Assembly (NCBI GenBank): GCA_013288555.1
Contig: JABDBQ010000011.1
Coordinates: forward strand, 1,820 to 65,819
DNA: 64,000 bases
Reading direction: 5' to 3'
Source: Bacteroidota bacterium
Lineage (GTDB): Bacteria > Bacteroidota > Bacteroidia > CAILMK01
This document shows positions 6,253 to 39,481 of this stretch, piece after piece; within the stretch, counting starts at the first letter, position 1, and each line of letters starts with the position of its first letter. Both the position numbers and the translations under genes were made by a program. The notes beneath the pieces were generated by a model. That model did not search any database, had not been told where the DNA came from, and saw only the letters and a list, made by a program, of their open reading frames with translations.

Positions 6253-6724
6253 GGAATTTCATTTTTCTGCAGAGACAAGTCATTGCCTTGTCTCCTGTCT
6301 GGATCAAATTATTAATTTGAATACCAGGGAATCAATCAGGCAGTTGTCATATATATATTTATCAATCTAAATGATTTCTCTCGGGGAGACAAGGCAGTGC
6401 CTTTGTCTCTACAATGCATCTAGTCAGGGCTTCGAGAAACCAGCCACTGTATTGTTCGTTATTTTCTATTTCCTATTCTCATTCTCGAATTCCCAAATTC
6501 CAAGTTTCAAGTTTCAAATTTGAACTTTCCATCAGAGTCTCACCCGGAACCATGTTGCTGACCCACAAATCAATGTGGACTCTGATGTTCTACTCACAAG
6601 AATTGTGCTTGCATTCGCGTATTCCTCAGAGTCCCCTCGGCGATGGATGGGTTAGGATCATATAAGGGGGAGACATCTGAGGGAAAGATAAAAAAATGAA
6701 ACATTTTGAAAAATATTTTCGCTT

Positions 6725-6810
6725 GTAACATATTGAATATATATAAGTTAAAAAATATTTTTCACGAGCACCCACCCACTTGGGCAGTTCGCTATATATG
6801 TATGTAAAAA
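6725..6810 (+). promoter_or_regulatory. Dispersed motif P, copy A (IHF-like site + CCACCCACTT + CTATATATGTA); putative alternative-sigma promoter
   Basis: Gap-free alignment with 37370-37454 (+) and 28643-28729 (-). Confidence 0.7.
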
Positions 6811-6849
6811 CAGGCGTAAGGGATAAGGCGTAAGGCGTAAGTGGATGGC
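6811..6849. repeat. Heptamer-type tandem repeat (AGGCGTA) unit
   Basis: 38/39 identical to 35962-36000; diverged inverted copy at 28802-28834. Confidence 0.8.
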
Positions 6850-6960
6850 GCGAGAGAATCATGCTAATCATTTAATCATATGAATCAAGGTTCAGACAAT
6901 TTTCGGGAACAAAATCAGATCTCTTCCCGAGCACTCGGGATCGAGATGACAGAAATTAAA

Positions 6961-7162
6961 AAGATAAACCGCCGTTTTTGGGCATTCTGGATTGATATTT
7001 CTCTGTTATCGCCTGTTATTTGTCAATGAGTTACGCGTAATTAGTTTAAAATAAATAAGTTAAAAAATGAAAAAAATGAAATTTGTCAAATATCAGGCCA
7101 GTTTGCTGGAAATGGCGTTTTTAAGAATTTATCAGGCCAGAATGCCGGAAGCGCGGTTTTTG
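6961..7162. repeat. Dispersed element D, copy 1 (inverted/direct arms around IHF-like sites)
   Basis: First 100 nt are 81/100 identical, without gaps, to 37561-37660; left arm 6981-6996 is inverted relative to 7092-7107 and 7131-7146. Confidence 0.75.
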
Positions 7163-7345
7163 ATTCGGACCAAATCCCCCTGCCCTCCCGAAGAAGTCGG
7201 GACAGGCCGTTGGAAGGGGGATTCCCTTCTTATTACTTTGAAATTGTAAATGAAAATTAAAGCATTGTCTCAACATTGTTTTTGTAAAGTCAAATATTGA
7301 ATGAATGTCAACAGGTTTTGTTAATTGATCATTGGTTATTGATCA

Positions 7346-8356
7346 TTGGTGCCTTTGGTCAATGAATATAAAACTTCTAACTTCGCACACAAGATGACAA
7401 CAGAATCCACATCCATCAAACAAACCAGTTTTCAGCTGCCGGGGCAGACAAATTTCTATCGCGGCAAGGTACGCGATGTGTATGAAATAGATTATCGCCT
7501 GATGGTGATGGTGGCTTCCGACCGAATTTCAGCTTTTGATTATATCCTGCCACGGGAGATACCTGGTAAGGGCGCCATCCTGAATACTATCGCGGCTTTT
7601 TTCCTGGAAATGACGCACCATGATGTCCCGAACTGGCTTTTAAAAGTGCCTGACGGCAGGGTATCTATCGGATACAAATGTGAACCCTTTCCTGTAGAAA
7701 TGGTGATCAGGGGCCGGCTTTGCGGACACGCATTGAGAGAATATTCATCCGGCAAAAGAATATTATGCGGCATGCCAATGCCTGAAAACATGAAGCCCTA
7801 TGAGGCATTTCCTGAACCGATTATAACGCCGTCTACCAAGGCGCATGAAGGGCACGATGAAGACATATCGAGAGAAGAGATTCTGAAAAGAGGATTGGTT
7901 TCAGCCGAGGATTATGCCGCCCTCGAAAACTATACCTGCAAACTTTTTGAGGCCGGGGCAAACTATGCTTCAGAGCGCGGATTGATCCTTGCGGATACCA
8001 AATTTGAATTCGGAAAAAAGGACGGGAACATATACCTGATAGATGAAATACTGACCCCTGATTCTTCCAGGTATTATTATGCTGATGGGTACGATGATCA
8101 TGTAAAACAGGGAATCACACCAAAGCAACTTTCAAAAGAATTTGTGCGGGAATGGCTGATGGAGAATGGGTTCCAGGGACTGGAAGGCCAGAAAATGCCG
8201 GAAATGAGTGATGAAGTCGTAGAGATGATATCAAACCGGTACAAAGAACTTTTCAGCCTGGTTACCGGCCAGGATTTCGAAACGGTAAAAACGGCATCCG
8301 ATGTAAATGCCCTCGAAAGAAAAATACAATCGGCCTTAAAAGAGATTGATATTTAA
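7346..8356 (+). CDS. purC: Phosphoribosylaminoimidazole-succinocarboxamide synthase (likely start ATG 7394)
   Basis: YRGKVRDVY, SDRISAFD, TPSTKA, ADTKFEFG, DEILTPDSSRY, LSKEFVR. Confidence 0.95.
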   Translation: MVPLVNEYKTSNFAHKMTTESTSIKQTSFQLPGQTNFYRGKVRDVYEIDYRLMVMVASDRISAFDYILPREIPGKGAILNTIAAFFLEMTHHDVPNWLLKVPDGRVSIGYKCEPFPVEMVIRGRLCGHALREYSSGKRILCGMPMPENMKPYEAFPEPIITPSTKAHEGHDEDISREEILKRGLVSAEDYAALENYTCKLFEAGANYASERGLILADTKFEFGKKDGNIYLIDEILTPDSSRYYYADGYDDHVKQGITPKQLSKEFVREWLMENGFQGLEGQKMPEMSDEVVEMISNRYKELFSLVTGQDFETVKTASDVNALERKIQSALKEIDI

Positions 8357-18220: not shown

Positions 18221-18293
18221 GCCGCTTTAGCTCAGTTGGTAGAGCATCGCATTCGTAATGCGAGGGTCGAGGGTTCAAGTCCCTTGAGCGGCT
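18221..18293 (+). tRNA. tRNA-Thr (anticodon CGT)
   Basis: Acceptor GCCGCTT/GAGCGGC, D-arm GCTCAGTTGGTAGAGC, anticodon arm TCGCA-TTCGTAA-TGCGA, T-loop GGTTCAAGTCC; CCA not encoded. Confidence 0.95.
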
Positions 18294-18297
18294 CTAA

Positions 18298-19982: not shown

Positions 19983-20588
19983 TCAATTACCCTTACCGAA
20001 ATGCAATTTCCATCTCAACCCGAGACTATGTGCCCCTGAGATCATATCATAATGATATTGAATCAATGCATCTTTTTTGGTAAGCAGTGCTAATGAAATA
20101 CCTGCCACAGGCTGCAGATTTCGTGATGAATATCCCGCGAATCCGCCAATAAAAATTCTGTTCGTTGGCTTTGTAGACAATGTCGTTAAATGCAGGTTTC
20201 GGCTATTCTCAATCAGCACTTTATGTCCTGCTATTTTATTATCAGAAACACTGTCTTCTATGACAGCCGTCACATCCCTGGCCTCAATAGTATCCCTGTA
20301 AATCCGGCTCGCAAAATAATCTTTGATCATAGCAGATGTATCTACTTTTGAAATACTTTGCGGATAATAAATTTTATACGGTTTAAAAACAGTGTCCTGT
20401 ACCAGAAATAATTGACTGTCTCCATGAACTACGATAGTATCATGTTTGAACAGATTATCTTTTTGTTTTTGAATGGAACAGGAACGCTGCAACAAGATAA
20501 TGACAAGGAGCAGGCACGACAATATCCATCCTGTCCATTTTAATTTATCAATCATGTGAATTATGGTTTTCAAGGGTTTGCTTGACAA
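19983..20588 (-). CDS. Phage membrane-anchored protein (spanin-like lysis module component); likely start ATG 20555
   Basis: N-terminal TM then DT-rich stalk and beta-rich C-terminus; follows holin-like genes. Confidence 0.5.
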   Translation of the reverse strand: MSSKPLKTIIHMIDKLKWTGWILSCLLLVIILLQRSCSIQKQKDNLFKHDTIVVHGDSQLFLVQDTVFKPYKIYYPQSISKVDTSAMIKDYFASRIYRDTIEARDVTAVIEDSVSDNKIAGHKVLIENSRNLHLTTLSTKPTNRIFIGGFAGYSSRNLQPVAGISLALLTKKDALIQYHYDMISGAHSLGLRWKLHFGKGN

Positions 20589-20763
20589 TTTCTTCTGGTG
20601 ATTTTTGAGCGTCTTTGGAAAAGAGCAGTCCTATGCCTGAAAGGATAATTGGGCCACTTTCAATCCAGTTTTGTTTGGCAGTCAAGCCGGTGTACAAGCC
20701 GGCTGCAATTAAGATACAGCCGAGCAGGCTGGTTTTCCAGTTTTCAATGATCATTGTTTTCAT
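20548..20763 (-). CDS. Holin-like small membrane protein
   Basis: 71 aa, two TM helices, NWKTSLLG...GLLFSKD pattern. Confidence 0.55.
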   Translation of the reverse strand: MKTMIIENWKTSLLGCILIAAGLYTGLTAKQNWIESGPIILSGIGLLFSKDAQKSPEEIVKQTLENHNSHD

Positions 20764-20947
20764 GATTGTTTTCTTTTTGATTTTCGGGTTTTAAAAATTC
20801 GTGGTATATCTTAAGACAGACATAGATGGCTGATGGAAGGCCGAATGCCAGTTTGATACTCCAGTCGATGGCGCTGAGCCAGATACCGGCATTTACTGCG
20901 GATACCTGGACGGTATTGTTTGATATAAAACTTATTAATGATTTCAA
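20744..20947 (-). CDS. Holin-like small membrane protein
   Basis: 67 aa hydrophobic protein overlapping the next gene. Confidence 0.5.
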   Translation of the reverse strand: MKSLISFISNNTVQVSAVNAGIWLSAIDWSIKLAFGLPSAIYVCLKIYHEFLKPENQKENNHENNDH

Positions 20948-20960
20948 GGATTCGATTCAT

Positions 20961-22235
20961 TTAAAAATGTTTGCGGCAAAGTAGATAAGGTTGAGTGGCA
21001 CTTTTAGCAACGGAAGATGCAGTTGGAAATGTTTGATAGGAAATCCTTAGCGCTGCCGTGGTTGCACTATAATTCGTGGTCGAGGACCAGACCTGTGCAG
21101 AGCTGACAGGGTTCAAATTAAAGGGCGCATAATTCAAACAAACGGCAGAATACTGTGTAATAGAAAGCACTTCATTGGCATTGGGCAATTTGAAATCATT
21201 ATAGGTATTCGCTCCAACAGTGAGTGATAATGTGTTTGCAATGGCTGTCGCCCAGGTGGCGGAGGTTTGCAATGTGGTACACCATCCCAGCCCGGTAGCA
21301 TGGTCAATAACATAATTGCTTCCAAATACCTGTGCGCCATTCTCGTCCGTAAAGCGGTGGGTGTTCCCAAAACTGTTGTTGGTCTTCAGGGTAAAAAAAT
21401 CAGTGAGCCTACCATGCTGCAGGTTGCCGTCATCACCGGTGGCATAAGAGGTAGTCTGCCCGGTCTGGAGCGTATAAATCTCATTTATGGAATTTCGTTG
21501 TATTGTACTCAGGTTATCCTGCAAAAACTGGTTGCTCATTACAGTGCCTAAAACGTATTTCAACTGGGAAGAAGTGAGGTTTGCCAACTGGCTGTTTACC
21601 AGTTCCTGAACCTGGGCGGCACTCATATATCCGATCTGGGTATTTGTAAGGGAATACGTTGACAGCAAAGTACCGGATGAATTATATGTTTTCAATACCA
21701 GTTTTGCAACGACATTTGTATCTGTCATAAAATGCAGCCATGCATTTGTTCCAGGTCTTATACTCTGAACTATAGGTGCATTGGTCAGGAATTTCTTTTG
21801 GACAGATGCTGCAATCAGCCAGTCGGTCTGGTTATAATTCAGGAAATCCGGGAAATCAAAAACAGAATTAAATACGTATCGCTTTTCTTCTGTTACAAGA
21901 GAAAGATATTGAACCGGGCCGGTAGGATCCGAGCCATACTCCTCGCCAAACTTTACGATATAAGGATAGCCACTTGCACTGTTCTTTTCGAAATTTACCG
22001 TAGCCGCATCAATATCGTAGTGGACATAATTTTCAAGGATCCTATGCAGGTCGAACATGCCGTAGCCATCCGGTTGCGGGATACGTTTGATGCGTGCCAA
22101 CCTTGTAGTACCGTCGGCTGCATATATATCACAGATATACTTATAGTTGGGCTGACTCTGATTGCTGCTGGTAACTACGTATACCAGTTCGTTATACGCA
22201 GGACTGAATTTTGATGGGTATTGGGTTATGGTCAT
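20961..22235 (-). CDS. Phage virion/tail protein with C-terminal DUF1566 (Lcl-C, C-type-lectin-like) domain
   Basis: TGQTTSYATGDDG, VIDHATGLGW, TWATA, FKLPNANEV, WSSTT motifs; N-terminal virion-structural-like segment. Confidence 0.7.
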   Translation of the reverse strand: MTITQYPSKFSPAYNELVYVVTSSNQSQPNYKYICDIYAADGTTRLARIKRIPQPDGYGMFDLHRILENYVHYDIDAATVNFEKNSASGYPYIVKFGEEYGSDPTGPVQYLSLVTEEKRYVFNSVFDFPDFLNYNQTDWLIAASVQKKFLTNAPIVQSIRPGTNAWLHFMTDTNVVAKLVLKTYNSSGTLLSTYSLTNTQIGYMSAAQVQELVNSQLANLTSSQLKYVLGTVMSNQFLQDNLSTIQRNSINEIYTLQTGQTTSYATGDDGNLQHGRLTDFFTLKTNNSFGNTHRFTDENGAQVFGSNYVIDHATGLGWCTTLQTSATWATAIANTLSLTVGANTYNDFKLPNANEVLSITQYSAVCLNYAPFNLNPVSSAQVWSSTTNYSATTAALRISYQTFPTASSVAKSATQPYLLCRKHF

Positions 22236-22284
22236 GGGGAAATTGGTGAGTTAGTGAGTTAAAAGAATTCCACAAAATCGTAAT

Positions 22285-22785
22285 TCATAATTCGTAATTC
22301 ATAATTGATTTTACGTCTTGTTTGAAGGCAGCACTTAAACTATTATTTAACTCCTTAAATAAGTCGGGGTTAATTGTATTCGAATAGAAATTCGTGGCAG
22401 GAATTCCATCCCTGGCTATCTTCCTTCCGATAAGATATGCAAGACTTTTGAGCTGGTTTTGTTGTGATAAAACGGTCGACATTCCGTTTCTGTTTTTAAT
22501 TTTTTTTAGCGTCGACTTTTGGATTACGTTGAGTTGCTTATTTTGAATCCAACTGGCTATAATATCCGGCGGCGGGAACTTTCCGGGCTTCCTGCCCCGG
22601 TCTATAAAATTATAATAATCTGCCAGTTGCAACTGAAACACAATCGGGAAGCCTGCATAATTAATGCTAAAGCTGATACTATTGCCCAAGAATTGATCAG
22701 GATCTTTTTCAGGAGGTATGGCAGTCTTTAATGCAGATACAATCTTCTCACCCCAGGCTTCTAAAGTGTTTTGAATATTTTCCAT
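22285..22785 (-). CDS. Phage neck/tail-completion protein (HK97 gp10-like)
   Basis: Y.FIDRGRKPGK.PP..I..WI and LAYLIGRKIARDGIPAT.F motifs. Confidence 0.6.
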   Translation of the reverse strand: MENIQNTLEAWGEKIVSALKTAIPPEKDPDQFLGNSISFSINYAGFPIVFQLQLADYYNFIDRGRKPGKFPPPDIIASWIQNKQLNVIQKSTLKKIKNRNGMSTVLSQQNQLKSLAYLIGRKIARDGIPATNFYSNTINPDLFKELNNSLSAAFKQDVKSIMNYEL

Positions 22786-22838
22786 TATACTTCATATTTA
22801 TTGTATATCAAACTATCTTAACTGTTGGCCGTTGACTG

Positions 22839-23087
22839 CTAATTGTTTACTTTTTGTTGATTCTTCGCCTTCAAAAACGAGATCCTGTTCATGAATTCGA
22901 TAACATTCATTTTTTCATAATACTGCCAGAGGTTTCCGTTCCCGTTACTTAAGGCATCAAGGACTATAAACCAGCCGTAACGCTCATGATATCCATCATT
23001 TCTGTTTGTATCTGGTTCATCTTCTTTGTCGTCTCGGTCTTCAAATAATCCTGCATAGCTACTGTTAAATGCTGCGAGAGATTGCAA
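22839..23087 (-). CDS. -1 frame extension of tail assembly chaperone (G-T type)
   Basis: Opens at the T9 slippery run; YGWFIVLDALS...MNVIEF.N.ISF motif. Confidence 0.7.
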   Translation of the reverse strand: MQSLAAFNSSYAGLFEDRDDKEDEPDTNRNDGYHERYGWFIVLDALSNGNGNLWQYYEKMNVIEFMNRISFLKAKNQQKVNN

Positions 23088-23596
23088 AAAAAAACCAGTA
23101 TCGGATAAGCGATCGACATTGACATGTTTTCATATAAAAATGCGGCCCGCTCTGAGTGATCTTTGCCATCATATTTTATGGGAATCAAGCCCCATTTCAA
23201 TGGGGCTACTATCACTGCCAGGACATTATGAATATTCGCTGTGGGGTTTTCATTTTCTTTCAAAAATGTCATCAGGTCAATATACTGTCCGCCGCTAAGA
23301 TCGGAGGCATTTAAGTTGATTTTGAACCATTTGCCTTTGATGCAAAAGCGCAAATGCTTAGAACTCTTCAATGGCCTGATCAAATCAAGGTTGTTCAGGA
23401 AGCTGATCTTATCAAGGCATTCGTGCAAAGTTTTCAGCGGCAAAGCCAGGATTTCGCTCCTGGATATGCCTGAAAGAAGCGAAATGATTTCAACATCTTT
23501 ACCGTGATTATCAAGACTTTTGTCGTTAATTATTTTTTCAAAACCGCAATAGGTTTTCAGGGAAATCTCTTTCCATGAGGTTGGTAGTTTGGGCAT
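22964..23596 (-). CDS. Phage tail assembly chaperone (G type)
   Basis: LPTSWKEISL, GQYIDL; ...VFFC encoded by GTT TTT TTT TGC. Confidence 0.7.
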   Translation of the reverse strand: MPKLPTSWKEISLKTYCGFEKIINDKSLDNHGKDVEIISLLSGISRSEILALPLKTLHECLDKISFLNNLDLIRPLKSSKHLRFCIKGKWFKINLNASDLSGGQYIDLMTFLKENENPTANIHNVLAVIVAPLKWGLIPIKYDGKDHSERAAFLYENMSMSIAYPILVFFCNLSQHLTVAMQDYLKTETTKKMNQIQTEMMDIMSVTAGL

Positions 23597-23654
23597 AAAA
23601 ATCTTTTAATATATAAATTTTTTAATCTTCAATTTTTTAATCTTTTAATTGTCT

Positions 23655-24809
23655 CTATCTCATCGCATATTTCCCACTTGGTCTTAATCCATGGGTATGA
23701 ACAGCATATCTGATCGCATCAAGCGCATGATCATTGAATTTGACCGGTTCATCAATCAGGTTCCCGTTCGCATCTTCTTTCCATTTGTAGCCTTGTCGTT
23801 CTTTGAGGATATTGGTACTGCGGCGTGTTACAAATACTTTCATCCGTTTCATCTTATCAATCCCATCTTTCACACTTTTGTCAGCTGATTTGCAGTTTAA
23901 TCCCGCCTTCCTGATCTCAGCTATCCGCTGTGGTTCTGCAGCATCAGCATAGATACTTGCATGAGCTGGCAGTAAATCATTCATCCTTATAATGAGCTCA
24001 CTATTTGTAAGGTAGGTCTGATAGATCAATTCATCCACCCAAAGCTGGTTCCCGTCTTTCAAACAGCATTTCACAAGGGCAGTGGGAACATTATACCCGA
24101 AATCCAATCCGTAAAACACATCTCCTCCTTCTGGTAACTCATCCACGATATCCCAGGCATTGTATATGGTTGTTTTCAACTGACCTCTCTCACCGAGCCC
24201 GTATATCCTCCAGAGATTTTCATCCGTTTCTTTCAGTCTTTCAATTTCCTTTATGATATTTTTATCCAGGAAGTGATTGTCTTTATATGTTGACTTTATA
24301 AAAGTGCAATCAGTCCTTATCAACAGATGCTCATAGATCCAATGGTTCTCATCAACAGGATTGTAATCGATAAATACCTGTTTCCGGGTTCGTAACATCA
24401 ACTGGTTAAATGTTTCATAAGGAACTAAATTACATTCGTTTACAAACAGGATATCTCTTCTTGGGCCACGGGCTTTGCCGGGATCATCGAGACTGAAAAA
24501 TTCGATGCGGCTTTTACTGATTTTGAAAATATTATCCGTTTTGTTATAAAATTGCTCATCATACAAATCATATGCGTTCAGCATATTGGTAAAGTCAAGC
24601 AAGGCACCTTTTTTCAGATGCGGCAAACTCACCGAACAAACCGAAATATGCAATTTCTCTTTGATGGCTTTTGCAACCAATGCCTGCAAAACCGACCAGG
24701 TCTTCCCTGAAGATGTACCTCCCTGGTTGACAATAATCCGATCCGGCGATTCAAGATTTTTTGATAATATCTCCGATCCTTTGTATTTGAGTTTTTTAGT
24801 CTTCAACAT
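23655..24809 (-). CDS. Terminase large subunit (PBSX family)
   Basis: QGGTSSGKT Walker A, LFVNE Walker B, DYNP, GLDFGY, YADAAEP, NDHALDAIRY nuclease motifs. Confidence 0.92.
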   Translation of the reverse strand: MLKTKKLKYKGSEILSKNLESPDRIIVNQGGTSSGKTWSVLQALVAKAIKEKLHISVCSVSLPHLKKGALLDFTNMLNAYDLYDEQFYNKTDNIFKISKSRIEFFSLDDPGKARGPRRDILFVNECNLVPYETFNQLMLRTRKQVFIDYNPVDENHWIYEHLLIRTDCTFIKSTYKDNHFLDKNIIKEIERLKETDENLWRIYGLGERGQLKTTIYNAWDIVDELPEGGDVFYGLDFGYNVPTALVKCCLKDGNQLWVDELIYQTYLTNSELIIRMNDLLPAHASIYADAAEPQRIAEIRKAGLNCKSADKSVKDGIDKMKRMKVFVTRRSTNILKERQGYKWKEDANGNLIDEPVKFNDHALDAIRYAVHTHGLRPSGKYAMR

Positions 24810-25140
24810 CGTCGATACATTTATGGATAATGGTTATTTCCACTTCATTAATATCGCTACCCGGTGGTTCTTTCCTGGCCTTAATTTCAGGACTAAAATA
24901 TTTGGCGACAGCATTACCAAACGCTATCCGGTCTTTGTGACTGAGACTTTCAACATCTTCATTCAATGTCTTGATGCACTTATCAAAAACTTGACGTAAA
25001 GCATCATCCCAGTTTTGACCTCATCCTTCTGCGCCTGACTTTTCTGCCGCGCTTTTTCGGGCTTGCGTTTTGGTGCTGACTTTCCTTTTGGTTGCCGGTC
25101 GGGAGGAGGCTTTGGGTTTCTGATGGGTCTTTGGTTTCAT
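24796..25140 (-). pseudogene. Terminase small-subunit-like frame with in-frame TGA at 25021-25023
   Basis: Own translation: 39 aa basic segment, TGA, then 74 aa GQNWDDALRQ...SLSHKDRI...EVEITIIHKCIDDVED*, overlapping the terL start. Confidence 0.5.
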
Positions 25141-25384
25141 GGGTTTCTTTTTGTTTGATTTGATTCAATATCTCACGCTCATACTGGTTAAAAAGCGTCG
25201 TGATCATTTCTTCTACACATACACTGCAGTACAACCTCACAGGTGCCGGATGAAGTTCTTCGCGATACACAGAAGCAATGGCTTCCAGGGTCGGCAGGTT
25301 GATAGGTGGAATGCATTTGTTAGCCTTATAATATTCCCAGAATGGCAGGTAATTGCGTAGCTTTTCTAAGTTGGTTGGCGACAT
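25004..25384 (-). CDS. Phage hypothetical protein with CxxC motif
   Basis: YCSVCV motif, basic tail; position upstream of terminase. Confidence 0.6.
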   Translation of the reverse strand: MSPTNLEKLRNYLPFWEYYKANKCIPPINLPTLEAIASVYREELHPAPVRLYCSVCVEEMITTLFNQYEREILNQIKQKETHETKDPSETQSLLPTGNQKESQHQNASPKKRGRKVRRRRMRSKLG

Positions 25385-25428
25385 AAATCAATTGGTTGGT
25401 TTAGGGTTATTTATTCTTGTTTCATCAA

Positions 25429-26415
25429 TCAGGATTTAAATGCATCTGTTACGATTTTTAATGAATCTTCAAATCGTTTGAGTTGGAAATTATGCTTGAG
25501 TTGCTCCATGTGTACGAGGCCATATTGCTGCCTGACTTCATCGCTTTCTAAAGTGATTCTACCTGCCCACAATCCCTCGTGAAATATACTGAAATCCTGC
25601 CTGTTAAAATTAAGATCGATGGGCGTTTTTGCAGTAATAGTTAAAAGGAATACGAAATAAGCCATCCCTACAACCTGCCGCATCAGGAATAACCGGGCAT
25701 GCTGGTATTCAGTTGCTTTCGCCCCGAAATAACTACACAGGAAATCCTTTTCCTCTGTATCGTTTCTTACAACAAAGTTTGCGACCATTGCCAGGTCTGA
25801 ATATCGGTCATTCAAAAATGCAGCTTCCCAGTCCACAAGCCAGGGTCGCTCCCCATCATAGATAATATTTTCAGGCTTCACGTCATTGTGACAGGATACC
25901 ATATCAGGACCTATGCGTGGGTAAATGCTTGAAATTCTTGAATACTGATGGAACAAATCTTCGGTCATGTTTTCAGGTAATATTTTCACGTCCCTGAATT
26001 TCTGGATAAAACTATCAATAAAATCAAAATACTTTACCGTGTACGGGAAAGGCGGAAGTGCATGCAAATCTTTTAGCAACAAAGGCATTTTAACTCTTGC
26101 TTCATCTACAGAAAAAGGTTCAGGCTCTATAAAATCCGTAATAGAAATACGGTCTTCGATGCCAGTATACCAGATCTTTGGGGCAAGACCCGCCTCTGCT
26201 GCCGGCTTCATGCAGGAATAATAGTGCGTTGGGTCGGCCATCGCATCTGTTCGCATAATGACACGAAGGAGATAGGCATTGCCCTTCACCACAATCCGGA
26301 AAATAAGAGCAGATGAAAGTCCGGCAGTGAGTTGGCGGATATCTTCAAATTCATTTGTCCCGAAAGCAATATTAAGAGCGTTAGCAACAGCAGATTTTTT
26401 CTCTTCAGGAATCAT
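25429..26415 (-). CDS. APH / choline-kinase-like phosphotransferase (moron within phage cassette)
   Basis: CHNDVKPENI and VDWE motifs; own TATATTTG -7 element near 26447-26454 (minus strand). Confidence 0.85.
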   Translation of the reverse strand: MIPEEKKSAVANALNIAFGTNEFEDIRQLTAGLSSALIFRIVVKGNAYLLRVIMRTDAMADPTHYYSCMKPAAEAGLAPKIWYTGIEDRISITDFIEPEPFSVDEARVKMPLLLKDLHALPPFPYTVKYFDFIDSFIQKFRDVKILPENMTEDLFHQYSRISSIYPRIGPDMVSCHNDVKPENIIYDGERPWLVDWEAAFLNDRYSDLAMVANFVVRNDTEEKDFLCSYFGAKATEYQHARLFLMRQVVGMAYFVFLLTITAKTPIDLNFNRQDFSIFHEGLWAGRITLESDEVRQQYGLVHMEQLKHNFQLKRFEDSLKIVTDAFKS

Positions 26416-26616
26416 AAAAGTTATCAGTTAATGTTGTTTAAATGGGCCAAATATATAGTCGTTTTGAAGCTTCCGGCAAGCATTTTATGTTTATTTTTTT
26501 TATTTGAACTTTGTTTAAAAAATGGACGTTAAGCCTATAACTGACCTTGTATTTTAATCGCTGAATATTTTAATTTATCGGACTTTAGTACCGGATCATT
26601 GATTATTGATCATTGA

Positions 26617-26874
26617 TCATTTCTTCAGTGTTTTAGAAATAAAAACAGCAACAATAGAACTCATTGCGGCAAACAATGGCGCAGCCAGAAATTGCTTTTG
26701 AAACATAAACAAAATGAGTGCAATCCACCATGCAAGGCACATTGGGCAATCAAACGGTTTCAGTCGGTTAAAATTCAGTCTATATTTGACCCATTGTACC
26801 AATCCTGAGGTTTCCGCAATTAAGACAGCCATACAGGCACAAGAAATTATTAATAGCAGGTTTTGCATTGTCAA
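26617..26874 (-). CDS. Phage small membrane protein with CxxC (DUF1360-like)
   Basis: KPFDCPMCLAWW within hydrophobic helices. Confidence 0.6.
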   Translation of the reverse strand: MTMQNLLLIISCACMAVLIAETSGLVQWVKYRLNFNRLKPFDCPMCLAWWIALILFMFQKQFLAAPLFAAMSSIVAVFISKTLKK

Positions 26875-26902
26875 TATTTTAATCTTTTAATTTTTCAATT
26901 TT

Positions 26903-27982
26903 TCAATTCAACAGGTTTCTGTACAACTCCGCCCTCGTTTTATTCACGATATCAATATGATAGGTTAGTATTATATCCTCATGCAATTGTTCCTCGAGAT
27001 CCTGTACAAGATTCGGATTATTTACCAGCTTTTTCATACTCAGGTACCAGGCTGATTTATAGTTGGTTTCTCTTATCACAAGACAATTGATCCCCGGCTT
27101 CGCTATTGCTTTATAAGGCATTACATCACTTACGATCATGGCCTTTTTCATAAAGCCGGCCTCGATCATTTTCAGTTCGCTTTTGCAGTTGTTAAACAGG
27201 TTATGGGTGAGAGGAGCGAGTGCGACATCAAACAAGTTATAGCCCTGCGCATAACTGAAAACATTTGCGGCATAGATCCGGTAATAGGTATTATCATTGC
27301 ATTCGAGTTGCCTGGTAAAAATATTTTCGAATTCCTGATACATTCCTGACGTGTCATCTTTACTAAAACCCATGAGATAAAGCTGGTACTTATACTTTAG
27401 TGTTTCATCAGAATTCAGTATTTTAAAACTGTTTTCCATGAGTTTAATATCTTCCTTATGACAAACGCCGCCCACCCAGCCAAATCGTGTCAGGGAAGAA
27501 GGAGCGGGATTGATTTCGAATTGTGGCTGGGCGGGATCAATGGCGTTTGGCAGGACCGTCACATAAGGGTTTATCCTTTTGATCAGGTCTGCAAAAAAGG
27601 GGGTAGTGGTGGTTATATGATCTGAATTTTTTAAACTAACTAACGTTTGTTCGCTTATTTTCTCTTTGGCATAAGCGGTATATAAAAGATGCCCGGGATA
27701 CAATTCCCAATAATCATCGATATCCAGTATGGAAATAATTCCAAGCTTTTTCAAACGGTACAGGACTTCTTTTGAATTTCCGTTCCAGGAAACCATTCGG
27801 CTGAACTGTATCAATTGAAACTGTCTCAGAAAATCATCGCTCGCCGACTCGATCTCATTGATCTGGTGTACCTCAAATTCATCTTTATAATGACTGTTGA
27901 GATGGTAATGCGGTATCAGCTGGCGATGGTATTCCACGCCGGTTAAATGCGTATTTACGACGATCAGGATTTTAGTTCTCAT
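26903..27982 (-). CDS. Phage-associated glycosyltransferase (GT-B fold)
   Basis: GVEYHR, LDIDDYW, VLPNAID, FGWVGG..H..D, FNNCKSELKMIEAG, SDVMPY. Confidence 0.85.
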   Translation of the reverse strand: MRTKILIVVNTHLTGVEYHRQLIPHYHLNSHYKDEFEVHQINEIESASDDFLRQFQLIQFSRMVSWNGNSKEVLYRLKKLGIISILDIDDYWELYPGHLLYTAYAKEKISEQTLVSLKNSDHITTTTPFFADLIKRINPYVTVLPNAIDPAQPQFEINPAPSSLTRFGWVGGVCHKEDIKLMENSFKILNSDETLKYKYQLYLMGFSKDDTSGMYQEFENIFTRQLECNDNTYYRIYAANVFSYAQGYNLFDVALAPLTHNLFNNCKSELKMIEAGFMKKAMIVSDVMPYKAIAKPGINCLVIRETNYKSAWYLSMKKLVNNPNLVQDLEEQLHEDIILTYHIDIVNKTRAELYRNLLN

Positions 27983-28506
27983 CTGTACATGAATTGTTTG
28001 AACTGTGGGTTTTTGCGGATGCGTTCTTTTACTTTATTCACAGTGTAACGAATGCTGTTGCGGTTGATCCGGGTTTTCCGTGCCAGCTTACGGGCGCTGT
28101 TCAGATCCATCACTGCCCTGAAAAGCTCACGCTCATACCAATCCATTTTATCCAGTTCCTTATTTATAAAGTTGATGATTTCTGTATCATCTTCTTCCAT
28201 CGCATCAGACTTTTCGGCCCATATTGTTGCCACTCCGGGCATATATTTTATCACCTTATCCATATGCCTGTATTTAAGAGAAAAAGTACTGGTTTGTGAG
28301 TGGTACAAATTATTGATGATCCTTTTCGCGAACAGCCTGAACCATTCTTTCGAATAAACCTCTGGCAGGTTATCGTATGTGAGTAAAGCAAAAATAAATT
28401 CCTGGTAGAGGTCATCTACAAGGTCGCGGCGGGCTATTTTACGGCAGAGATCCTTATAGTACCTACAGCGGCTGATTTCTATAATAATATGATTGTTGGT
28501 TTTCAT
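27979..28506 (-). CDS. ECF-like RNA polymerase sigma factor of phage origin
   Basis: 175 aa; region-2-like DDLYQEF; region-4 HTH SARKLARKTRINRNSIRYTVNKVKERI; ATGA overlap with the glycosyltransferase. Confidence 0.7.
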   Translation of the reverse strand: MKTNNHIIIEISRCRYYKDLCRKIARRDLVDDLYQEFIFALLTYDNLPEVYSKEWFRLFAKRIINNLYHSQTSTFSLKYRHMDKVIKYMPGVATIWAEKSDAMEEDDTEIINFINKELDKMDWYERELFRAVMDLNSARKLARKTRINRNSIRYTVNKVKERIRKNPQFKQFMYR

Positions 28507-28519
28507 TGTTTTGTGATTG

Positions 28520-28630
28520 GTGATTTGAAACTTGAAATTGGAAATTAGAAACTTGAAACTTGTGATTTGAAATTTGTGATTTGAAATTTGAAATTAGTAA
28601 ATGGTAAATGGTAGTTGGTAAATGGTCAGT
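28520..28630. repeat. Heptamer tandem repeat tract (GAAACTT/GAAATTT/GTAAATG)
   Basis: Consecutive degenerate 7-mers; similar tracts at ~6490-6522, 18185-18212 and 48100-48180. Confidence 0.7.
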
Positions 28631-28642
28631 GATTGTATCGCG

Positions 28643-28756
28643 TTTTTAATGTACATATATAGTGAAGTGGCAAAGTGGGTGGATGGTTTTGAAAAATAAT
28701 TTTCAATCAATTTTTAATCAATACGTTACAAGCGAAAATATTTTTGAAAATGTTTT
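28643..28756 (-). promoter_or_regulatory. Dispersed motif P, copy B, upstream of the phage sigma gene
   Basis: Reverse complement CCACCCACTTTGCCACTTCACTATATATGTAC; exact IHF consensus AATCAATACGTTA at 28716-28728. Confidence 0.7.
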
Positions 28757-28850
28757 ACTTTTCTAAAAACCGGTCTGATTTTAGTCTTCGAAGCAGGCTT
28801 TCACTTACGCCTTGCCCCCTTATTCCTTACGCCTCCTTTCAGGACGTATT

Positions 28851-28991
28851 TACAAATTTTGTTGGTATTTGCTCGTTTATTACAATAATAGTTGTATATT
28901 TGTAGCACATATTGGCATATTTTAAAATTGTGAGGAGCAAATATACTACTATAGTTGTAATTACAATGAAGTTTGTACAATTATTTTTGTA
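28851..28991. promoter_or_regulatory. Operator array TACAA-N6-TTGTA with face-to-face -7 promoters
   Basis: Sites 28881-28896, 28944-28959 (TACTA variant), 28962-28977, 28976-28991, degenerate 28851-28866; TATATTTG at 28895-28902 (+) and 28938-28945 (-). Confidence 0.75.
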
Positions 28992-29851
28992 AAAATATTA
29001 TGAATAAATTAACGGTTTCAAACTCAGATAGTTTCCGCGAACGCATTGGATATTTCCACAAAGAATTCCTGGGAATGCCTCAATATGTCTTCGCCGAAAG
29101 CATCGGTCTTGGACAGGAAAGGGTACGCAAAAGCCTCATGCCGGGAAAGCAACCCACCGCTGAATTTTTTGAAGCTATCTTCAACACCTACCCCGATCTG
29201 AATCCGGATTGGATCTTTACCGGGCGAGGCGCAATGCTTCATTCCAAAGAGGAGACGCTCACACCCTATATGGCTCAAGAATCATTTTCAAAACCAAGCT
29301 CAGAACAAGTGTCAGGCAAAAACCTCCGCGTGCTTTGTATTACCAACGACTCATCAGGCAATGAAAACGTGGAAGTGGTGAATACCAAAGCCGCCGCAAG
29401 CTATATCGACAATATACAGGAGCCGCAGTTCCTTTCCAGTCTGCCCAAGATAAGCCTGCCGGGCAATGTCTTCCGTGGCGGCACCTTCAGGGCCTTTGAG
29501 GTAAAGGGAAACAGTATGGAGCCTACCATTCAGCAGGGCTCATGGGTAATTGGTCAGTATGTACAAGACTGGTTGACGCTCAAAGATGATTATATCTATA
29601 TCGTGGTGATGCAGGATGCTATACTTATCAAACGGATTCTCAACCGTATTGATAAGCGACAAGGCCTCGTGCTGAAAAGCGATAACCGCGAATATGAAAA
29701 TAAAAACATTGACATTGACGAAGTAAAAGAACTCTGGCTATTGAAAGCCGAAATGCGCTACGACTTTAAAAACCCGAGCAAGGAAATGTATCTGCAACTT
29801 CAACATCTGATGGCTGATGTGGAAGATATTAAGAATAAGATCGGGCTTTAG
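28973..29851 (+). CDS. XRE-HTH / S24 peptidase repressor (CI/LexA-like); likely start ATG 29000
   Basis: N-terminal HTH and NPDWIFTGRG; AAASY cleavage-like site; FEVKGNSMEP (Ser) and LIKRI (Lys); LKSDN. Confidence 0.9.
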   Translation: MYNYFCKNIMNKLTVSNSDSFRERIGYFHKEFLGMPQYVFAESIGLGQERVRKSLMPGKQPTAEFFEAIFNTYPDLNPDWIFTGRGAMLHSKEETLTPYMAQESFSKPSSEQVSGKNLRVLCITNDSSGNENVEVVNTKAAASYIDNIQEPQFLSSLPKISLPGNVFRGGTFRAFEVKGNSMEPTIQQGSWVIGQYVQDWLTLKDDYIYIVVMQDAILIKRILNRIDKRQGLVLKSDNREYENKNIDIDEVKELWLLKAEMRYDFKNPSKEMYLQLQHLMADVEDIKNKIGL

Positions 29852-37231: not shown

Positions 37232-37369
37232 ATTTTAAACATGTATCTGGCAAATGTACACATTCCGCACAAAATGTGTACACGTCTGTGACATATCTTT
37301 ATCTAATCGACATATTCTATCTAACACATCACCGTCATAGTGACAACAAATTCCAAAAAAAATGAGTCT

Positions 37370-37454
37370 ATAACTCATTGAATAAATATAAGTTAAAAAA
37401 CATTTTTCCAAAACACCCACCCACTTTGGCATCTCACTATATATGTACATAAAA
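37370..37454 (+). promoter_or_regulatory. Dispersed motif P, copy C
   Basis: TAACTCATTGAAT...CACCCACCCACTTTGGCATCTCACTATATATGTACAT, colinear with copies A and B. Confidence 0.7.
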
Positions 37455-37560: not shown

Positions 37561-37766
37561 AAGATAAACCTGCGTTTTTTGCTATTCTGGATTGATCTTT
37601 CCCTGTTATCTATTGATATTTGTCAATGAGTTACGTGCATGAAGCTTAAAATCAATGAGTTGAAAATCGCAAAAAAAATGTAATCATTGTTTATCAATCC
37701 AGAATAGTCAAAAAGGCCGTTTTTGGGAAATTATCAATAGAAAACAATAAAAAAGGGCATTTTGAG
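37561..37766. repeat. Dispersed element D, copy 2
   Basis: Homologous to 6961-7162; perfect 15 bp inverted repeat 37582-37596 / 37693-37707; IHF consensus AATCAATGAGTTG at 37650-37662. Confidence 0.75.
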
Positions 37767-37780
37767 GAATCAGATCTCTC

Positions 37781-39481
37781 CTATGGCCGAGATGACAAAA
37801 TCATCTTTTTCACATCCTGGATACTGACCATATTCGTAAAATCCAGTTCCAGTATAGCAGGCTTGCCTTTGGTCGCTAAGAAATCATTGAGTGTCTGACT
37901 GTAATCCTCTAATTTATTGCAAAATAAATAATTACAGTTATGCTGCAAGGCTATATGCTCAAAATTAAGTGGCTGTTTCACTGCAAAATATTCTTCCAGT
38001 TCTTTCTGAGCTTTTGCGCCGGGTAGGGTACGGAAAATACCGCCGCCGTGATTATTAAATACAACGATTTTCAGGTTGTCCCTGAGATAGTTGTTCCATA
38101 ATCCGTTACTGTCATACATAAAACCCAGGTCTCCTACAATAAGTACATGATTGCGATCATCTACCATGGATTGTCCTGCTGTAGAACTTACCGTTCCATC
38201 AATACCACTGGTACCACGATTGGAATAGATTTCGATATCCGGATTGATGAACGGAAATACGGAAGCATACCTGACCGGCAAACTGTTACCCAAATGCAGA
38301 ACTGTATTTTTTTCTAATTTGAAAACGATCTCATAAGCTGCACGTATTTCACTGAATTCCAATGATTCAATAACTTTTTGCGAAGCTGTTTTTAGCTCTG
38401 AATCTTTCTTAGACCATAGGGTGAAATATTCGTTATTGAACTTGATAATATCATTCGATGCCAAGGCCTTGAAAAATGCCGGTGCACTGAAATCAAATAC
38501 ATTCGTTAATTTCTGAAAAGTATCAGCAGAAGATGAGTGTCCGCTCAGGTACCAGTGTTCTTTGATAGACTTGCCTTTAAGGAAATTTTTCAGGGTTTTG
38601 GAGACGATCGGTCCGCCGAAACTGATGACCAATTCTGGAGAAAAATTCTCTTTCTCCGTCGTTGATAATGAGTCAATAACCAATTCTGCAAAAGATACGG
38701 AGCCGGGGATATTTACCAGGTTGGAAGTGATATCGGGAACAAATACGAGATTTTTATTCGCGCATGCTTTTGTAACGGCTTCTTTTAGTGAAGGGTTTAC
38801 TCTGTGCGTACCAGCAATAACCAGGATCTTATTGAATTTCCCAAGTCTTTCAAATATCTCTAACGGAACTGTCTTATCTGCAGATTCCAGTTTAATGATC
38901 TTAGGGTTTAATCCACTGAAGTCAGGCTCAGTATCCAGGTACAAAGGCTCTCTTAAAGGTACATTAATGTGTACCGGTCCTTTGGGTTGCTGGTTCGCTG
39001 TATTCAGTGCTTCATTTACTATTCTTATGGCAAACCATTCAGAATCAGGGTGCGAAAATTCTGTCTGGAAAGTATAGGTATTCTTCACATGTTTGCCATA
39101 CAGATTTGCCTGGTATATCGCCTGGTTATCAGCCTGCCCGATCCATTCAGCCGGACGATCTGCGGTAAATACGATCAATGGTATTTCACAGAAAAATGCT
39201 TCCGCAACAGCAGGTGCAAAATTGAGTGCTGCCGTACCTGATGTACAAACCAATGCCACAGGTTTTTTTGATTGTCTCGCGATTCCTAATGCCGTATAAG
39301 CCGCTGATCTTTCATCCGGAATGACATAATGTTTAATCCCCTCAAACCGCATGAAACTCAAAGCCAGCGGCGCACTCCGCGATCCCGGACATAGCACCAC
39401 ATTTTCTACCCCGTGGGCTTTACATACCTGTACTGCCTGATGGAGTATCTCGTACGTTTTTATGGTGTCCCGGTTGTCCAA
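37781..39481 (-). CDS. menD: SEPHCHC synthase (menaquinone biosynthesis)
   Basis: CPGSRSAPL, DERSA, CTSGTAALN, TADRP, NRGTSGIDG, GDL...NNHGGGIF. Confidence 0.95.
   Translation of the reverse strand: MDNRDTIKTYEILHQAVQVCKAHGVENVVLCPGSRSAPLALSFMRFEGIKHYVIPDERSAAYTALGIARQSKKPVALVCTSGTAALNFAPAVAEAFFCEIPLIVFTADRPAEWIGQADNQAIYQANLYGKHVKNTYTFQTEFSHPDSEWFAIRIVNEALNTANQQPKGPVHINVPLREPLYLDTEPDFSGLNPKIIKLESADKTVPLEIFERLGKFNKILVIAGTHRVNPSLKEAVTKACANKNLVFVPDITSNLVNIPGSVSFAELVIDSLSTTEKENFSPELVISFGGPIVSKTLKNFLKGKSIKEHWYLSGHSSSADTFQKLTNVFDFSAPAFFKALASNDIIKFNNEYFTLWSKKDSELKTASQKVIESLEFSEIRAAYEIVFKLEKNTVLHLGNSLPVRYASVFPFINPDIEIYSNRGTSGIDGTVSSTAGQSMVDDRNHVLIVGDLGFMYDSNGLWNNYLRDNLKIVVFNNHGGGIFRTLPGAKAQKELEEYFAVKQPLNFEHIALQHNCNYLFCNKLEDYSQTLNDFLATKGKPAILELDFTNMVSIQDVKKMILSSRP

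Follow-up and report, generated by a model that had tools for sequence, protein, structure and literature searches.

A family of dispersed, promoter-like intergenic repeats in a narrow lineage of uncultured soil Bacteroidota

What is a promoter-like sequence that stands upstream of a phage-type sigma gene doing at two further places far outside the phage cassette? The question is raised by a 64,000-nucleotide stretch of DNA from a Bacteroidota bacterium (the window; contig C11:1820-65819), part of an assembly of 2.84 Mb in 102 contigs that is 67.5% complete and has 39.7% G+C. A preliminary description of the window had aligned three segments of about 85 bp, at 6725-6810 and 37370-37454 on the plus strand and at 28643-28729 on the minus strand. 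It took two of their boxes for the -35 and -10 elements of promoters read by the nearby sigma factor, which could then drive a chromosome-wide regulon including non-coding loci.

Copies and distribution of the P module

All three segments lie at these coordinates and on these strands, and their core alignment is essentially gap-free, with the CCACCCA and CTATATATGTA boxes identical across copies A, B and C. The homology reaches further in the 5' direction than first noted, an extra 35 nt being common to copies A and B. We use the name P for the whole repeat module of 113-121 nt (roughly 115 nt), of which the 85 bp noted first form the core. Copy C is full length, with a variant 5' arm (GTGACAACAAATTCC...) that we term type 2; this arm also occurs in other P copies and predominates in some metagenome contigs. 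The three copies in the window comprise the following features.

6690-6810, plus strand: P copy A, with a type 1 5' arm
6707-6719 and 6752-6764, plus strand: the two palindromic AAAATATTTT boxes of copy A
6772-6778, plus strand: CCACCCA box of copy A
6792-6802, plus strand: CTATATATGTA box of copy A
28644-28765, minus strand: P copy B, type 1, with the motif at 28652-28682
37340-37454, plus strand: P copy C, with a type 2 5' arm and the motif at 37417-37447

The count of three proved too low because a single 64-kb window samples a genome-wide family. The exact pattern CCACCCA-N13-CTATATATGTA has 37 sites in the same genome, all of them within P, and shortened versions of the motif added no sites lacking P there. 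The bipartite motif was outside the full module at none of the 37 exact sites, which is the signature of a duplicated repeat and leaves the idea of independently evolved sigma sites unsupported. A BLAST search of the genome with the 121 nt of copy A (threshold E<1e-8) returned 38 matches: two are partial, and the other 36 cover 90 nt or more of the query. A 38th copy of P, on contig C6, deviates from the pattern at one position and is interrupted by an IS element. A scan of metagenomes found at least 93 loci matching the pattern. From 89 metagenome sequences with enough flank we set aside 15 with less than 50% identity to the consensus and kept 74, giving at least 74 further P copies in metagenome contigs, from several sources and more than one organism and in two 5'-arm subtypes.

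Outside this group the searches were negative. BLAST detected no P in 40 relatives, of which 24 belong to the same order, the exact pattern had no match among the GTDB species representatives, and P had no counterpart in phage and plasmid collections. Among IMG/VR viral contigs the pattern gave a single chance match. A relaxed pattern, allowing one or two mismatches, matched six times in the 24 same-order genomes; the four matches inspected bear no likeness to the AT-rich part of P, and one relaxed match (locus L245) resembles coding sequence. The nearest relatives of the LysRS of this genome are in Chitinophagales/Bacteroidia MAGs, at about 67% identity, and the genome has a T9SS sorting domain. 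On this sequence evidence the P family is real, multi-copy and limited to a narrow, genus-level lineage of uncultured soil Bacteroidota.

Anatomy, constraint and genomic placement

P is AT-rich and overall non-palindromic. The 36 BLAST-defined copies have a mean identity of 86% to the consensus, yet 39 of the 106 columns do not vary at all, where a uniform substitution rate would leave 0.5. The conserved blocks, invariant or nearly so, are a 5' ACA triplet, the two AAAATATTTT boxes (paired palindromes about 42 bp apart), TAAC and TTGA, CCACCCA, and CTATATATGTA. Conservation fades 6-9 nt past the TATA-rich box, at ATAAAA. The fixed spacing of 56 nt between an IHF-like site and the end of the first box, described from the three segments, holds from RTAAY to the end of CCACCCAnn in all 32 copies (of 37) that match the RTAAY pattern. 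Copy B carries AATCAATACGTTA, as first noted. The exact IHF consensus did not extend to the family, and we rejected an IHF-binding site, since WATCAANNNNTTR is exact in just 4 of 37 copies; most copies have TTCAAT.

Comparisons between copies bear on whether individual copies are under selection. The only copy with a decayed box is the split one, in which CCACCCA has become CCAGCCA. The insertion has terminal repeats GGAAACAATATAC and an 8-bp duplication AATATTTT.

C6:79400-82200 (locus L239:1900-4700): IS1595-family element of 2.65 kb in a P copy, with a DDE_Tnp_IS1595 transposase

At an orthologous locus in a relative (L097, compared with C21), P is 92% identical and the adjacent leader 52-79%. 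Among 11 cross-organism pairs, the orthologous copy is the best match in five, each with at least 82% flank identity. In the remaining six pairs (74-84% flank identity) it ranks 4th to 25th among the own-genome copies, pointing to turnover or gene conversion in the longer term. In this cross-organism comparison the subtype of the 5' arm tends to track the genome. Taken together, the invariant columns, the decayed split copy, the 92% ortholog identity and the best-match orthologs suggest selection on individual copies.

All 36 BLAST-defined copies are intergenic, in spacers with a median of 844 nt vs a genome median of 105 nt. With genes taken as ORFs of at least 200 aa, the downstream gene is co-stranded with P in 31 of 36 cases (p=1.3e-5) and the upstream gene in 16 of 33; the median distance from P to the downstream gene is 625 nt. 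The promoter-like look noted at the outset is thus borne out by the 31 of 36 copies that face a downstream gene, by the TATA-rich box at the 3' edge and by the end of conservation a few bases later. Five of the 36 copies aim at the 3' end of a convergent gene, as does copy C at a TPP-enzyme gene (37781-39481, minus strand), and non-coding DNA does follow some P copies, as had been said. A terminator-like hairpin lies upstream of P in 8 of 37 copies.

The genes 3' of P have no common theme. They include purC, yebC, ndk, adenine deaminase, ccmB, ThrRS, HisRS, H+-PPase, a MiaB-like gene, MatE, CorC, a GH25 muramidase, YfhO, an ordinary ECF sigma, tRNA-Leu and unknowns. The proposed link between motif and phage-type sigma found no support here, as the 36 copies are followed by housekeeping genes unrelated to one another, along with a second ECF sigma of the ordinary kind. 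P is no phage-specific signal; the copy at the phage-type sigma gene is one of many. Copy A faces purC.

7346-8356, plus strand: purC (SAICAR synthetase)

The purC start is probably the ATG at 7395, and a near-canonical -7 box, TGCCTTTG, is at 7350-7357, 38 nt before this ATG. The tRNA-Leu (C12:34968-35050) lies about 520 nt 3' of a P copy in the same orientation. A 256-aa ORF first called at this place overlaps the tRNA, has no Pfam match and is probably spurious.

Mosaic leaders and a possible selfish repeat

P usually heads a mosaic that runs from P through heptamer repeats and a second module, M2, to GC-rich hairpins. In the window the mosaics contain the following parts.

6812-6841, plus strand: heptamer repeat AGGCGTA, 4.3 copies, adjoining copy A
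6955-7150, plus strand: M2 beside copy A, a MITE-like palindromic module with an AT-rich centre
7173-7232, plus strand: GC-rich REP-like or terminator-like hairpin that closes the copy A mosaic
28516-28626, minus strand: heptamer repeats that fill the 145-nt leader from copy B to the sigma-like ORF
37557 to about 37684-37700, plus strand: M2 beside copy C, with arms complementary at 26 of 31 positions

Heptamer arrays of the AGGCGTA type stand directly 3' of P in 25 of 37 copies and those of the AATTACG type in 6 of 37. Heptamer repeats (AGGCGTA, ATTTGAA, GTAAATG, AATTACG and others) are plentiful in intergenic DNA, for example at 7324-7350 of the window. Some AGGCGTA arrays have a reverse-complement partner, CTTACGCCTTATGCC, 100-150 nt in the 3' direction, like the arms of another palindromic element.

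M2 has about 130 nt plus arms (about 130-200 nt); on its right side, one to three tandem units are complementary to the left arm. In the copy at 6955-7150 the arm on the left, GGCATTCTGGATTGATA (6981-6997), can pair with repeated right-arm units at 7088-7106 and 7130-7146. The arms covary across subtypes (CATTCTGGATTGAT/ATCAATCCAGAATG, TTTCCTATTGAT/ATCAATAGGAAA and GCATTTTGGCCT/AGGCCAAAATGC), and with these covarying, complementary arms M2 looks like a MITE or a long hairpin. The genome has 32 copies of M2, 28 of them with P 175-700 nt upstream on the same strand, and M2 is found in about two thirds of P loci. A small ORF in M2 (MKKIN...) was rejected: its ATG is present in 17 of 32 copies, neither the frame nor the stop codons are constant, and inserted hairpins interrupt the reading frame; no conserved peptide was found in the 32 copies. 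RNAalifold predicted no structure for the M2 core from 64 sequences, in an alignment that excluded the downstream arms, which do pair. Several other short ORFs called within mosaics overlap M2.

GC-rich, REP-like nested hairpins occur at 29 genome sites, 12 of them downstream of P. Their sequences include AATCCCCCTGCC...CCCGAAGAAGTCGGGACAGG...GGGGGATT and CCCGACTTATTCGGG. A further sequence, 'module 4' (...GCACAAATGTACACCCAAACGTGACAG...AGATAAACC...), is repeated in P leaders on contigs C1, C5, C12, C39 and C74, and a related sequence lies just 5' of copy C (window 37250-37330).

Related assemblies differ at these loci. One relative has a mosaic of about 910 nt, with P and M2, between convergent genes that are 16 nt apart in the own genome, a polymorphism more suggestive of mobile DNA than of a regulatory element. 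Between related assemblies, the flank on the upstream side of P can be different, swapped or altered by indels. In assembly L053, the upstream flank of the P locus on C1 is joined to the downstream flank of that on C19. Logan contigs from two DNA runs (window 6799-7178) break within P and M2, with a summed depth 40-170 times that of the flanks. The joining in L053 and the Logan contig ends arise either because the repeats recombine or because the assembly is chimeric at P. The Logan contigs flanking copy A have depths of 35 and 157, and this inequality means that some joins at P may be chimeric. Repeats of this kind break assemblies and may cause chimeric MAG joins, so annotators should mask P and distrust short ORFs in mosaics.

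These observations bring in an alternative in which P is not a promoter and serves instead as the recognition end or protein-binding platform of a selfish composite repeat made of P, heptamers and M2. Its orientation bias would then reflect where insertions are tolerated, and its invariant boxes would be sites for a recombinase or an architectural protein. The boxes could indeed serve a recombinase or another DNA-binding protein rather than RNA polymerase. We regard this alternative as possible but doubtful. It accounts well for the homology of the entire 113 nt in all copies with the motif never alone, for the coupling of P to M2 (28 of 32), for M2 arms that covary like MITE terminal repeats, and for the presence or absence of the 910-nt mosaic between convergent genes. 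The swapped or indel-changed flanks, the six pairs with low ortholog ranks together with an arm subtype that tends to follow the genome, and neighbour genes lacking a common function are likewise in its favour. However, P has no terminal inverted repeats. We rejected MITE status for P itself, the ends of which are not complementary and the only internal inverted repeat of which is the AAAATATTTT pair; A-runs on both sides (AAAAAA...ATAAAA) may belong to the element. An inverton was also rejected, as only 1 of 37 copies is flanked by exact inverted repeats of 11 bp or more, and these are of low complexity. We found no clean empty site for P alone, the sole polymorphism being the 910-nt mosaic. 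No transposase is associated with P, and the only one nearby is that of the IS1595 element inserted into a P copy. The strong constraint on columns and the long orthologous retention argue for a function at the level of the host, and tolerated insertion cannot explain a 31:5 orientation towards the downstream gene without a bias towards the upstream gene. The preliminary description had allowed that the copies might turn out to be the ends of a known IS or MITE. P is a dispersed repeat in MITE-like mosaics, but it does not form the ends of a known IS or MITE.

Promoter reading, candidate factors and known systems

In Bacteroidota the -33 element of sigma-A promoters is TTTG. The -7 box is TAnnTTTG, according to PMC9723704. 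In the own genome TAnnTTTG is about ten-fold enriched 20-50 nt before predicted starts (763 upstream regions), with about 59 counts per 10-nt bin at -40 to -20 vs 1-9 further upstream, indicating that promoters of the canonical phylum type, with short 5' UTRs, are in use in the lineage. In P, TATATATG matches TAnnTTTG at 7 of 8 positions, position 6 being A and not T in 37 of 37 copies. TTTG is absent 19-21 nt upstream of this -7-like box, where CACC, ACCC or GCAC is found; the sole TTTG of P is 9 nt upstream of the TATA-rich box. A sigma-70-type promoter scan did not call P. Judged by its letters, P is not a canonical sigma-A promoter.

Other classes were examined in turn. ECF promoters typically combine a -35 element containing AAC with a -10 element containing CGT, at a spacing of 16-17 nt. 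This pattern is missing from the invariant core of P, and the loose AAAC-N17-CGCT occurs only in the type 1 5' arm and is not retained in type 2 copies. Sigma-54 promoters have GG at -24 and GC at -12 (TGGCAC-N5-TTGC); in P, TGGCA varies among copies and the -12 position reads TATA, so that this class was rejected as well. We take CACTATA and ATATATGTA in P to resemble T7 and mitochondrial promoters. A T7-like RNA polymerase (PF00940) had no match in the 67.5%-complete genome, a search in which control genomes were equally silent. A small ORF starting at an ATG in the TATA-rich box was rejected, as TAA follows the ATG directly in several metagenome copies. A search of the window with Rfam 15 at gathering score found only a tRNA, and at E<=1 positions 6600-7400 gave only a chance match to a plant miRNA. 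Since P fails the MITE, inverton, IHF and standard promoter tests, we class it as a new family of a known kind, the dispersed intergenic, promoter-bearing repeat, and assign it to none of the named families.

The reading that we prefer is that P is a new family of dispersed, promoter-like intergenic repeats and probably a portable, outward-firing promoter, a prediction to which we give slightly better than even odds (about 0.55). The copies would have arisen from one another by duplication, each staying intact at the CCACCCA-N13-CTATATATGTA core and the two AAAATATTTT boxes. As an outward-firing promoter, P would head the mosaic, oriented towards an unrelated downstream gene. Its A/T boxes, which we take to resemble UP elements, may be UP-like or factor-binding sites at about -50 and about -92, and TATATATG may act as a near-match of the phylum -7 box. 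The transcript would begin within the conserved ATAAAA that follows the -7-like box and run through the mosaic leader to the gene, and the promoter reading predicts primary 5' ends 5-9 nt beyond CTATATATG at many copies. The hairpins ahead of 8 of the 37 copies, and a copy B leader devoid of any canonical -7 box, also fit an outward-firing promoter. As the -35-equivalent CCCACCCAC is not the phylum TTTG, an activator or an alternative sigma factor would have to read P at this element.

Several points weigh against a promoter: P has no TTTG at the -33 position and is not called by the sigma-70-type scan, it lies a median of 625 nt upstream of genes with likely promoters of their own, five of 36 copies face convergent gene ends, the downstream genes share no function, the 910-nt mosaic polymorphism resembles mobile DNA, and the whole module behaves as a duplicated repeat. 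A strict -7 box occurs within 90 nt of the start in 6 of 28 genes after P vs about a third of genes genome-wide, a comparison based on crude start codons. Genes after P thus seem to have retained proximal promoters about as often as genes in general, and so may not need P.

The phage-type ORF beside copy B was the sigma factor first proposed to read P. It lies in the following setting.

18221-18294: tRNA-Thr
19983-29851: phage-like cassette, which also has an APH/choline-kinase-like ORF
23655-24809: terminase large subunit of the cassette
26903-27982: phage-type glycosyltransferase-like ORF of the cassette
27979-28506, minus strand: sigma-like ORF of 175 aa, the first gene of a phage-like operon that reaches the terminase gene
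28973-29851, plus strand: CI/LexA-like repressor with a Peptidase_S24 domain, divergent from the sigma-like ORF

No portal or capsid gene was recognised in the cassette (19983-29851), which may be a prophage remnant conserved in the lineage. The ORF had been called a phage sigma, and this is tenable: it matches TIGR02937 over its full length with E=1.6e-7 (31.1 bits, below the cut-off of 42.9), the top Foldseek rows are all sigma factors (E>=0.012, TM about 0.3), and the nearest Atlas clusters are viral. Its AF2 model, of low confidence (pLDDT 60), has two helical domains. Pfam gave no match at 1e-3, and a PDB sequence search with the sigma alignment gave chance rows only. A divergent, phage-type protein resembling sigma-70/ECF factors is a plausible identity for the ORF. 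Among 5.8 billion proteins its homologues form only 8 clusters (64-92% identity), and no relatives were found in the 24 same-order genomes or in IMG/VR.

On this basis, P could be the cognate promoter of the phage-type sigma, autoregulated through copy B and fired at some 40-55 P copies, with expression triggered, for example, by cleavage of the adjacent CI/LexA-like repressor. We consider both the cognate pairing and such a trigger unlikely. The ORF is sigma-like and phage-like, and the CTATATATGTA box of copy B ends 145 nt ahead of its start at 28506 (about 140 nt in the preliminary description), with no canonical TAnnTTTG in the 145-nt leader between them. The departure of the core from the sigma-A consensus calls for another specificity factor, and sigma and P are both limited to the same narrow lineage, each with 0 of 24 same-order genomes. 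However, a shared range is trivial for two lineage-specific features, and only a same-strain locus (L035) has both. A second, ordinary ECF sigma gene, on contig C19, also follows P, so that autoregulation as an argument would fit more than one sigma. The AAC...CGT pattern typical of ECF promoters is missing from P, the similarity of the ORF to sigma factors is below curated and significance thresholds, and no copy of P stands before other phage-like genes in the window. The full scheme, in which a domesticated phage-derived sigma, restricted to this lineage and held behind the CI/LexA-like repressor, would read the P core, and about 40-55 copies of P as a self-propagating promoter module would yield long non-coding mosaic transcripts ahead of housekeeping genes, as a global regulon built by a mobile element, we regard as improbable.

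The boxes may instead act in RNA. Here transcription would start at a weak sigma-A-like promoter within P, ATTG-N20-TATTTTTC, upstream of the boxes, and CCACCCA...CUAUAUAUGUA would belong to the 5' leader, as a conserved element at which the RNA is processed or bound by a protein. Most copies have ATTG-N20-TATTTTTY with phylum-like spacing and a highly conserved T-run, but the key final G of TAnnTTTG is absent or variable in this candidate -7 box. No Rfam family matches, inspection by eye showed no covarying pairing around CCCAC..GGG, and the TAA after the ATG of the box in several metagenome copies leaves no conserved peptide. This explanation appears very improbable.

The preferred reading of P as a dispersed, promoter-like repeat has analogues in other bacteria. 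The Correia elements of Neisseria, about 100-150 bp long, are likewise scattered between genes; they contain an IHF site, and their outward-facing promoters change how neighbouring genes are expressed. Correia elements end in inverted repeats and are flanked by a TA target duplication; P is free of the former and appears to lack the latter, and the exact IHF consensus is confined to the 4 of 37 copies given above. REP/BIME/REPIN and ERIC repeats are species-specific, multi-copy, mosaic and intergenic. P mosaics share with them the GC-rich REP-like hairpins, whereas P itself is AT-rich, non-palindromic overall and 5' of genes. In the same phylum, the BrickBuilt MITE of Porphyromonas gingivalis has 19 copies, always intergenic and 49-591 nt from coding sequences, according to PMC4596501. 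As described there, it consists of a leader, a minisatellite of 23-nt tandem repeats and a tail, is found in one species, and has parts with bidirectional promoter activity (PMC4596501). BrickBuilt resembles P, by this description, in phylum, multi-copy state, intergenic location, modular build and narrow range. It differs by small inverted-repeat ends, the 23-nt minisatellite and bidirectionality; P is without terminal inverted repeats, precedes repeats of 7 nt and is strongly biased to one direction. On the features given in that source, BrickBuilt is the closest described same-phylum analogue of P. Putative mobile or reused promoters are closely similar upstream regions before non-homologous genes of one genome, as outlined in PMC3575422. 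P differs from these, so far as they are outlined there, in its median distance of 625 nt, in downstream genes that seem to keep proximal promoters, and in the MITE-like modules attached. Within these limits, Correia elements and reused promoters may be seen as functional analogues of P.

If P is an active promoter, one portable module would have been copied before dozens of unrelated genes and then held there by selection. Its non-canonical core would further imply an undescribed Bacteroidota specificity factor. If true, this would be natural regulatory rewiring through the spread of a repeat, in a phylum with unusual and poorly mapped transcription signals.
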